Shown: in pieces, positions 25,309 to 25,893 of the stretch
How positions within the stretch are numbered: the stretch's first letter is position 1
Layout of the letters: each line of letters starts with the position of its first letter
Assembly (NCBI GenBank): GCA_040767965.1
Contig: JAXGNR010000005.1
Location: 32,001-96,000, forward strand
Reading direction: 5' to 3'
Length of the DNA stretch: 64,000 nucleotides
Source of the DNA: Atribacterota bacterium
Lineage (GTDB): Bacteria > Atribacterota > Phoenicimicrobiia > Phoenicimicrobiales > Stramentimicrobiaceae
The notes under the pieces: model-generated
Told to the model about the DNA's origin: nothing
Seen by the model: only the letters and a program-made list of their open reading frames with translations
Databases searched by the model: none
Translations under genes and position numbers: made by a program

Positions 25309-25893
25309 ATGAGAATCAACAAATTATTTAATTTGACAATTATTTTTTTTGCCATGGTGCTTTTTTTAAGTGGGTGTCTCTCAAGTATAGTCCATGTAAC
25401 TGGTGTTAATATTACAGGAGGAGATCAGATTCTTGAAGTAGGGAAAAATCTACAATTATCTGTAGAGATTGAACCGATAGATTCCACCAATACAGTGGTT
25501 TTTTGGGAGTCAAGCGATATTAACAAAGTAACAGTTGATGAAAACGGGCTAGTTGAAGCAATAGCCAGTCCAGGGGCTGATATTACTGTAATTACTGAAG
25601 ACGGTGAATTTGAAGATACAATCGCAATCATTGTCATACCGGCCAGCTCTGACACTTCAAACAACACTTGTGATCCTTGTAATACAAATGACCCATGCAA
25701 TACCTGTGATCCAGACCCCTGTAATACCTGCGACCCATGCAGTACCTGTGAGCCGGAATGTGATCCCTGTAATCCATGTGGAGATTGTTATGATGAATGT
25801 GAATGCGATCCTGCTAGTTGTTGTGACCCGTGTGATCCATGTGGTGACTGTTATGACCCGGATGATGCATCCTGTAATCCATGTGGCTGTTAA
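25309..25893 (+). CDS. Lipoprotein with Big_2 Ig-like domain and Cys/Asp/Pro-rich C-terminal tail
   Basis: RBS AAGGAG; lipobox [31 protein letters not shown]; 22 Cys in aa 121-194. Confidence 0.85.

Follow-up and report, generated by a model that had tools for sequence, protein, structure and literature searches.

What does a cell gain from a lipoprotein whose last 74 residues are about 30% cysteine (Cys) and carry no Lys, Arg or His? The question is raised by a stretch of 64,000 nucleotides (nt) from an Atribacterota bacterium (assembly GCA_040767965.1, contig JAXGNR010000005.1, positions 32,001 to 96,000), referred to here as the window. In it the open reading frame (ORF) 25309..25893 on the plus strand encodes a 194-residue protein built of an LSGC lipoprotein signal, one immunoglobulin-like (Ig) Big_2 domain and a 74-residue Cys tail. 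The Atribacterota abound in anoxic sediments, landfills and digesters, are almost uncultured, and have an envelope biology that is largely unknown. Codon comparison indicates that this is a real gene under purifying selection on its Cys frame, and by homology searches the tail represents an undescribed repeat family, the lipobox-Big_2-Cys-array architecture being absent from the libraries searched. For the function of the tail we tentatively favour a reduced, lipid-tethered thiolate array that would bind metal or metal sulfide at the envelope; its reduced state, its metal binding and a physiological role in buffering, detoxification or scavenging are what we infer from its composition and setting.

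A lipoprotein that ends in a cysteine array

The protein divides into the following parts, all on the plus strand.

25309..25377, plus strand: lipoprotein signal peptide (residues 1-23), with a basic n-region, a hydrophobic core and the lipobox L-S-G-C; the predicted lipidated Cys is residue 23
25396..25620, plus strand: Big_2 Ig-like domain, the presumed stalk (residues 30-104; PF02368, E 1.1e-12, 48.1 bits against a cut-off of 22.8)
25621..25668, plus strand: Ser/Thr/Asn-rich linker (residues 105-120), differing in length and sequence among homologues
25669..25746, plus strand: C-[D/N]-[P/T] triplet array of variable length (residues 121-146), its copy number varying among homologues
25747..25806, plus strand: conserved core unit (residues 147-166), with eight Cys in 20 residues
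25819..25890, plus strand: second, degenerate core copy and C-terminal CNPCGC (residues 171-194), found also in the homologue L017 and missing from shorter homologues

An earlier sequence-only reading of this locus had recognised the LSGC lipobox and the single Big_2 domain, and both hold. The N-terminus runs from MRINK through a hydrophobic stretch to L-S-G-C at residues 20-23, in agreement with the lipobox rule [LVI][ASTVI][GAS]C, and G22 and C23 are invariant in all 12 aligned members of the Cys-tail family. The genome (2.33 Mb, 98% complete) encodes both Lgt (PF01790, E 2.4e-69) and the signal peptidase II LspA (PF01252, E 1.2e-35), each above its cut-off. Big_2 is the sole match in a Pfam scan of the whole protein.

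The same reading had counted 22 Cys, 19 Asp or Glu, 13 Pro and no basic residue in the tail (residues 121-194), and our recount agrees with it: 22 Cys, 15 Asp, 4 Glu, 13 Pro, 6 Asn and no Lys, Arg or His. Two Tyr are present, Phe and Trp are absent, and 12 of the 21 gaps between successive Cys are exactly three residues. The CDPC(N/D)PCGDCYD unit that it described as twice repeated ahead of a PCGC end is found at residues 151-162 and 172-183. Codons do vary between the two copies, as it had noted: their DNA differs at 6 of 36 positions, five of the differences being synonymous, and Tandem Repeats Finder picks up only short imperfect repeats of 9, 18 and 24 nt. The whole protein uses 19 TGT and 4 TGC codons for Cys. 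Among 5,933 ORFs of at least 50 residues in the genome, this one alone packs more than 10 Cys, namely 13, into any 40 residues, and the Cys tail is therefore not a product of chance.

How much of this is shared by relatives? The earlier reading hinged on Cys spacing being conserved in orthologues, and in the core unit it is. The core has a consensus of about 20 residues, C-E-P-[E/D]-(P)-C-[D/N]-P-C-[D/N]-P-[C/N]-[G/S]-D-C-Y-x-x-C-x-C, in which C, E, P, C, P, C, P, D, C, Y, C and C are invariant columns in all eight sequences of the tail alignment; short members have one copy, the window protein about two and the longest members three to four. Seven tail Cys (C121, C124, C151, C154, C160, C164 and C166) do not vary in any of the 12 aligned sequences. 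Across 17 distinct family tails, which are 30-131 residues long, Cys makes up 27-33% at every length, C-x-x-C is the commonest Cys spacing, and Lys, Arg and His together account for one residue in total. Hydrophobic and aromatic residues are almost lacking (hydrophobics were counted in eight tails), so that a conventional core is impossible. The acidity emphasised by the sequence-only reading is real in the window protein but is not a family property, since Asn largely replaces Asp in some members, which have 9-11 Asp or Glu against 21-26 Asn; in L008 and L010, for example, Asp and Glu together number 10-11. Asp and Asn swap freely in these tails whereas Cys and Pro do not. On the evidence of the alignments, the constrained features are Cys, Pro and the exclusion of basic residues, and because Asp and Asn interchange while Cys and Pro stay fixed, thiols rather than carboxylates appear to be the constrained chemistry.

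Selection, length variation and distribution of the family

Codon comparison of eight distinct genomic copies gives a tail ratio of nonsynonymous to synonymous substitution rates (dN/dS) of 0.02-0.08 in the four of 28 pairs with unsaturated dS; in the remaining 24 dS is saturated and tail dN is 0.06-0.41. Because repeats were aligned by amino-acid identity, these dN values are biased downward. Aligned Cys columns differ by TGT/TGC exchange alone at 3-15 positions per pair, and the head (residues 1-120) has a dN/dS of 0.08-0.35. We considered whether the Cys frame might be an artefact of the ORFs that overlap it, 25425-25700 on the minus strand and 25604-25903 in another plus frame, and rejected this; since selection acts on the Cys frame, these ORFs are by-products of the Cys-tail gene. 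Contigs from RNA libraries (three metatranscriptome runs from two studies) agree exactly with the tail over 25595-25848, 25608-25862 and 25742-26043; they are independent confirmation of the assembled repeat and consistent with the gene being transcribed. The stretches 24900-25594 and beyond 26074 are without RNA-contig cover, which was not taken as evidence. Five sequencing runs contain half or more of the sampled words, one from a bioreactor and four from landfill metagenomes; of these, the bioreactor run (X1) was aligned with the sequence.

The array can change in length quickly. Two alleles of a metagenomic homologue, L058 1423-2025 and L066 1365-1991 (both minus strand), are identical over all 603 aligned nt; their sole difference is an in-frame 24-nt indel within the CxxC array, with an 11-nt direct repeat on its flanks, and array length therefore shifts on very short time scales. 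Head and tail also appear separable. Between the window protein and L017 the tail is far closer (dN 0.07) than the head (dN 0.26), which suggests that the two are exchanged as modules. The signal-plus-Big_2 head recurs on large surface proteins, in frames of 476-1154 residues, in the same genome and in relatives. One of these, a large paralogous surface lipoprotein on contig C16 of the same genome (L002 1501-3429), shares the head and carries a single GDECDTCPP right after Big_2, a motif that could be the kind of seed from which a triplet array expands.

Might the tail be no more than a variable low-complexity surface appendage? Such an appendage would have a steric, adhesive or decoy role, in evasion of phages or predators or in adhesion to cells or minerals, and the repeat would be kept for its length polymorphism and for the stiffness given by a Pro at every third residue, not for thiol chemistry. 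The in-frame polymorphism between otherwise identical alleles, the head/tail mosaic and the sharing of the head with large surface proteins all speak for it, as does the adhesin under a cyclic di-GMP (c-di-GMP) riboswitch that lies upstream here, a homologue of which lies upstream in L006. It leaves unexplained, however, the invariance of seven Cys, a Cys content of 27-33% and the near-total exclusion of Lys, Arg and His, and the conserved 20-residue core with its fixed Cys spacing argues for a specific chemistry. We regard this explanation as quite unlikely. The length polymorphism, together with tails that span 30-131 residues, suits an array built for capacity better than a precise fold.

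About 20 homologues were found, all with the lipobox-Big_2-Cys-tail architecture. A search of 5.8 billion proteins returned 13 matches at E <= 0.01 among 154 candidates, namely the query and 12 others of 149-268 residues; PF02368 is present in all 13, and the Cys tail is intact in 11 of the 12 non-query proteins. In the homologue P0013 the tail shifts part-way into another frame rich in Pro, Val, Thr and Arg, which could be a natural frameshift, a phase variant or an assembly error. In a species-level genome collection, five of 10 confirmed loci have the full architecture, all five in Atribacterota metagenome-assembled genomes; the other five, from Bacillota and one Marinimicrobium, match only within residues 24-119, the Big_2 region. 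A degenerate DNA pattern for C[D/N]PCGDCY occurs at 11 places in 241 million metagenome records. Six of these are family members with the same architecture, and the other five, in contigs of 43-61% GC, were dismissed as chance matches.

Within the phylum the Cys-tail family is narrow and its tail is confined to one family-level lineage. Eight of 86 Atribacterota genomes have the tail (G000, which is the genome of the window, G069, G070, G072, G079, G082, G083 and G085), that is, the genome itself and seven of the 21 others in its family-level group, with none among 64 genomes of six other families. The head alone (E <= 1e-10) is found in the genome itself and 11 of those 21, and again in none of the 64 elsewhere in the phylum. 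Weak matches in G068, G057, G001, G030, G036 and G061 (E 0.01-0.3) were rejected as Cys arrays by a filter that asked for 8 or more Cys and a Cys share above 3.5%.

Word-seeded searches with the tail disclosed no other fusion partner, the searches of longer proteins being weak evidence on this point. At near length they returned the same family and a YceI-like protein (E 0.59), and at longer length two proteins whose E-values, 1.9 and 2.5, are non-significant, one of them with a GDCYDP-like unit. A tail-only phmmer search of 1.84 billion representatives gave no match at E <= 0.001 and missed the protein's own family too; it is uninformative because of the composition-bias correction. Look-alike motifs were seen in the YceI-like P0014, with NPCDPCNPC repeats separated by Lys-rich spacers, in P0015 (672 residues), with two ...G[D/E]CYDP.DPAC... 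units, and in P0016 (377 residues), with scattered CDPCNP, CNPCNP and CDPCDP motifs. With E-values that are non-significant, they could reflect convergence or a very distant relationship.

Possible metal thiolates or disulfides, and the known families

Based on these observations, we propose the following mechanism for the thiolate array. The protein would be Sec-exported and lipid-anchored, and its single Big_2 domain would hold out the C-terminal Cys tail. In a strictly anoxic organism without oxidative Dsb machinery the tail Cys would stay reduced, and the dense thiolates would chelate thiophilic ions (Zn, Cd, Cu(I), Ni, Co, Fe) or small metal-sulfide clusters at the envelope. In chemical terms this would be a gene-encoded, surface-tethered analogue of metallothionein or phytochelatin, whose capacity would scale with the number of C-x-x triplets as these expand and contract by recombination between short repeats. 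Mammalian metallothionein holds seven divalent or about 12 Cu(I) ions with 20 Cys; by analogy alone, the 22 Cys of the tail could hold about 5-8 divalent or about 10-12 Cu(I) ions.

The redox setting of the envelope bears directly on this proposal. DsbA, DsbB and VKOR (PF01323, PF02600 and PF07884) gave no match at E <= 0.01 in the 98% complete genome, positive controls being detected. The BdbD-type Thioredoxin_4 (PF13462) scores 17.9 bits, below its cut-off, and this match is the thioredoxin beside CcdA. Two CcdA/DsbD_TM genes are present, one adjoining the gene of a 140-residue protein of thioredoxin fold that has a CxxC site and, at its N-terminus, a hydrophobic anchor; to judge by these domains, CcdA and the anchored thioredoxin form a reducing, not an oxidising, envelope pathway. 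The pair lies at L039 304-3611 (contig C6 of the same genome) among four genes on one strand, for an ArsP-type permease, the membrane-anchored thioredoxin, CcdA and an SBF/ACR3-like transporter, which looks like an envelope-reducing module within a possible arsenic-handling cluster. The Cys count of the mature protein is even in 11 and odd in six of 17 distinct sequences, which are mutually related and two of which are perhaps truncated; a preference for even numbers is not evident. An even-number Cys bias is described as an accepted mark of disulfide-bonded exported proteins in passages of PMC2823432. We favour a thiolate array over a disulfide mesh because DsbA, DsbB and VKOR are lacking, CcdA and thioredoxin are present, and Cys parity is mixed. 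Of the three functions that the sequence-only reading had put forward (metal or metal-sulfide binding, a redox buffer, an O2-triggered cross-linker), it is the first that these features support, and indirectly.

The genome has a second, unrelated family of exported Cys-rich proteins, four paralogous acidic lipoproteins of 321-394 residues with a lipobox, a (Gly-Glu)n linker and 21-23 Cys each.

L035 2086-3051: first of the four 21-23-Cys lipoproteins
L035 3789-4805: second copy
L037 1109-2128: third copy
G000:C8:123534-124718 (within L036): fourth copy

Their Cys domain has an ordinary hydrophobic content, and the three copies scanned (those of L035 and L037) have no Pfam match. Together with the Cys-tail protein they are the five of 44 regex-predicted lipoproteins with more than six Cys, and by this count the organism appears to export Cys-rich proteins routinely.

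These four lipoproteins are possible partners in a disulfide cross-linker or mesh, in which disulfides within or between molecules, spontaneous or O2-triggered, would stiffen the envelope or bind the protein to further Cys-rich proteins there, much as the small Cys-rich lipoprotein OmcA does in the outer membrane of chlamydiae. We consider such a function unlikely but it deserves weighing. The combination of a lipoprotein with a Cys-rich build is reminiscent of OmcA, the neighbouring gene in this genome is katG, and four of eight tails have weak, sub-threshold matches to MSSP, a disulfide-cross-linked structural protein of Drosophila sperm tails. The missing DsbA, DsbB and VKOR, the reducing CcdA-thioredoxin pair, the mixed Cys parity and the anoxic digesters and landfills from which the sequences come all point the other way; moreover, the katG neighbourhood is missing from other loci (the flanks of L006-L010), and Chlam_OMP3 does not match. 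Were the cross-linker correct after all, it would point to oxidative folding in a lineage without a recognisable Dsb system.

A related thought is that the tail is a sacrificial thiol buffer, scavenging oxidants, electrophiles or polysulfide/S(0) at the envelope of a cell sensitive to oxygen, and recycled by CcdA-thioredoxin. The adjacent katG, the availability of CcdA and an anchored thioredoxin for re-reduction, and the high thiol density are in keeping with this. Yet the katG linkage is not conserved, 22 thiols per molecule make a small stoichiometric sink, and the acidic neighbours would be expected to raise the thiol pKa and lower reactivity. We hold this role to be improbable.

Which known proteins does the Cys tail resemble? 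The sequence-only reading had known of no family with this architecture, and Pfam, NCBIfam and PDB-profile searches likewise return no characterised repeat family for the tail. In Pfam at E <= 10 the eight tails gave only sub-threshold compositional matches, to MSSP and to a trypanosome acidic repeat; NCBIfam gave nothing relevant for the protein; and in the ESM Atlas the homologue P0003 retrieved Big_2 clusters only, its tail alone giving no usable match. A narrow open-access full-text search, with few terms and main texts as its scope, found no such protein in the literature. Metallothioneins are defined operationally as small proteins with about 30% Cys, C-x-C or C-x-x-C motifs and few aromatic residues, and the composition of the tail agrees: it is small, has about 30% Cys and C-x-x-C motifs, and has few aromatics. 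Like metallothioneins and phytochelatins it has C-x-x-C spacing, almost no hydrophobics or aromatics and a variable length. As in phytochelatin, (gamma-Glu-Cys)n, each tail Cys is accompanied by a carboxylate or amide residue, and as in engineered surface-displayed synthetic phytochelatins a lipid anchor would put the peptide at the envelope. It differs from metallothioneins and phytochelatins in being ribosomally made, Sec-exported and lipid-anchored behind an Ig domain, as predicted from its sequence, in having Pro at the third triplet position and neither Lys nor His, and in that its metal binding is putative.

Exported thiolate-array metal stores in another fold (Csp1) and Cys-rich envelope lipoproteins (OmcA) are already known. 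The chlamydial OmcA (Pfam Chlam_OMP3) is likewise a small envelope lipoprotein with a Cys-dominated mature part, and it acts by disulfide cross-links in an organism with an oxidising periplasm; here, by contrast, the Cys tail follows an interposed Ig domain, is a length-variable triplet repeat and belongs to a genome without DsbA, DsbB or VKOR. Chlam_OMP3 has no Pfam match to the whole protein at E <= 0.1 or to the tails at E <= 10. Passages of PMC7558416 describe natural metallothioneins as cytosolic, and the methanotroph copper storage protein Csp1 as a Tat-exported, pre-folded four-helix bundle with Cys lining its core. The likeness to Csp1 lies in an exported bacterial protein with a Cys-thiolate array, which in Csp1 stores many metal ions, and the difference in a tail without helix-forming or core residues, a Sec/lipoprotein signal and the lack of a sequence match.

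The period-3 Cys-x-Pro repeat is shared with MSSP (PF03940, Drosophila male-specific sperm proteins built of Cys-Gly-Pro triplets). Matches are weak and occur in four of eight tails (best E 0.0032; window tail 8.4 bits against a cut-off of 21.2), and MSSP, a structural protein found inside eukaryotic cells, is basic and rich in Gly, in contrast to the acidic window tail. All these matches fall short of the curated cut-off and reflect composition only. A PDB sequence search with the window tail found four rubredoxins, the best 9w1v_A at E 0.005 and the other three at E 0.6-1.3. The last 40 residues align over both CxxCG knuckles and the acidic loop, and the local motifs are therefore of a metal-chelating type. 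The positions of the rubredoxin hydrophobic core, however, are Cys, Asp or Pro in the window protein. The match is particular to the window protein, arising from its first core and second degenerate core, and the second knuckle or its spacing is missing from most homologues. Membership of the rubredoxins (two CxxCG knuckles about 30 residues apart and a hydrophobic core) was rejected, the match being confined to one protein and lost with a family profile; we read it as a convergent metal-chelating motif and not as homology.

A ferredoxin-type 4Fe-4S site has the form CX2CX2CX3CP. The window tail has C141-x2-C144-x2-C147-x3-C151-D-P; the last gap is x3 in five of eight tails and x4 in three, and in the eight-tail alignment Asp or Asn intervenes before the Pro. 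The tails have no Fer4 match in Pfam and the protein has no Tat signal. Could the tail be a Sec-exported scaffold on which Fe-S or metal-sulfide clusters assemble beyond the cytoplasm, drawing on Fe(II) or metal ions and sulfide in the surroundings and needing neither Tat nor the insertion of a cofactor in the cytoplasm? The CX2CX2CX3-4C core and the CxxCG knuckles would then be nucleation sites and the C-x-x array would supply capacity, as in a gene-encoded phytochelatin nucleating metal-sulfide nanoclusters on the envelope, for detoxification, for metal storage or as an electron-conducting contact with minerals or syntrophic partners. The spacing of the core is only partly conserved, and we find this scaffold function distinctly doubtful.

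Several observations weigh against the metal-binding thiolate array that we favour. No metallothionein family matches in Pfam, with the whole protein at E <= 0.1 or the eight tails at E <= 10, nor in NCBIfam. Metallothioneins normally carry Lys that offsets the cluster charge; the window tail is without Lys and strongly anionic. The eight-tail profile finds no PDB chain at E <= 10, the rubredoxin match being lost. No metal-related gene or regulator is a conserved neighbour at the loci compared, and the MerR neighbour in two loci is of the TipAS type. Since the four 21-23-Cys lipoproteins have hydrophobic cores, exported Cys-rich proteins may fold in this organism by an unrecognised oxidative route. 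Finally, the RNA-library contigs have a depth of only 2-5 and may contain some DNA carry-over.

What are the implications if the protein is nevertheless a natural, lipid-anchored, length-tunable thiolate array? It would be, to our knowledge, the first metallothionein-like protein for the bacterial cell exterior that uses the Sec/lipoprotein route. It would also be a module that could be used as it stands to capture metals or to drive biomineralisation, and it would hint at the way in which strict anaerobes cope with thiophilic metals in habitats rich in sulfide and metals.

The locus and its neighbours

The sequence-only reading had given the gene its own ribosome-binding site and terminator and had set it between a riboswitch-preceded adhesin and katG. 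The control signals stand, and so does the setting here; it is the setting that is not conserved at other loci.

22076-22159, plus strand: c-di-GMP-I riboswitch (RF01051, scoring 53.1 bits where the gathering score is 35), some 520 nt ahead of the adhesin
22681-24852: adhesin-like lipoprotein of 723 residues with CarboxypepD_reg-like and Big_2 domains, upstream of the Cys-tail gene
25286..25292, plus strand: ribosome-binding site AAAGGAG, 16 nt before the ATG; AAAGGAG or AGGAG is similarly placed in seven of eight homologous loci
25969..26011, plus strand: probable intrinsic terminator, a weak hairpin followed by TTTTT (fold of 25890-26060, -26.4 kcal/mol, z -2.73)
28749-29561, plus strand: Rce1-like CPBP intramembrane protease gene, downstream of katG

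A consensus terminator scan did not pick up the hairpin 3' of the gene; homologous loci have hairpin-plus-T-run terminators after the gene that are clearer and GC-rich. With its own ribosome-binding site and terminator, the Cys-tail gene appears to stand alone. The katG downstream of it encodes a two-domain catalase-peroxidase, and the gap between riboswitch and adhesin holds only a doubtful 80-residue ORF with a TTG start (22204-22446).

At the homologous loci the surroundings differ. L006 alone has a homologue of the adhesin upstream; in L007 and L009 a MerR-TipAS gene lies downstream, TipAS being an antibiotic-sensing type; L008 and L010 have a major facilitator superfamily transporter gene upstream; and L006 and L008 have phosphofructokinase (PFK) and Rrf2 genes further downstream, where L010 shows, by eye only, the start of a PFK-like ORF at the end of the locus. 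Counterparts of the PFK, Rrf2, NifS and NifU genes of L008 and of the MerR-TipAS gene of L007 sit on other contigs of the window's own genome. When the ORFs in the flanks of L006-L010 were compared with those of the window, no katG homologue was found. Conserved neighbours as functional partners were thus considered and rejected, there being at least four different contexts and none common to all loci; no maturase, transporter or regulator is a consistent partner across the loci compared. As the katG/adhesin neighbourhood is not conserved, it says little about function.

The Rce1-like gene bears on one further explanation, a tail modified in the manner of ribosomally synthesised and post-translationally modified peptides (RiPPs). 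A radical S-adenosylmethionine (radical-SAM) enzyme would link Cys to Asp, Asn or Thr by thioethers, or an Rce1-like protease would process the CGC end. The tail is indeed rich in Cys, Asp, Asn and Thr, the cross-linked residues of ranthipeptides, an Rce1-like gene is at hand, and the protein ends in CGC. However, there is no radical-SAM gene among the 16 neighbour proteins scanned at L006-L010 or the three scanned in the window, the CGC terminus occurs in only three of 17 distinct sequences (P0001, P0002 and P0003), no Rce1-like neighbour was seen at the other loci, and a Sec/lipoprotein signal with a folded Ig domain is no RiPP leader. This makes such a modification highly improbable. We see no link between the protease and the CGC end, because neither feature is conserved at other loci.

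Two short elements were seen in the leader of the gene. The first, AGGAGGTAATTAAAAA at 25170-25188, lies some 130 nt ahead of the start; L007, L009 and L017 have it at a comparable distance, and L006 and L018 have degenerate versions; no conserved small ORF was found downstream of it. The second is a perfect 14-nt tandem direct repeat, ACATATCTAAAAAT twice, at 25256-25283, directly before the ribosome-binding site. By their position both could be leader or operator elements.

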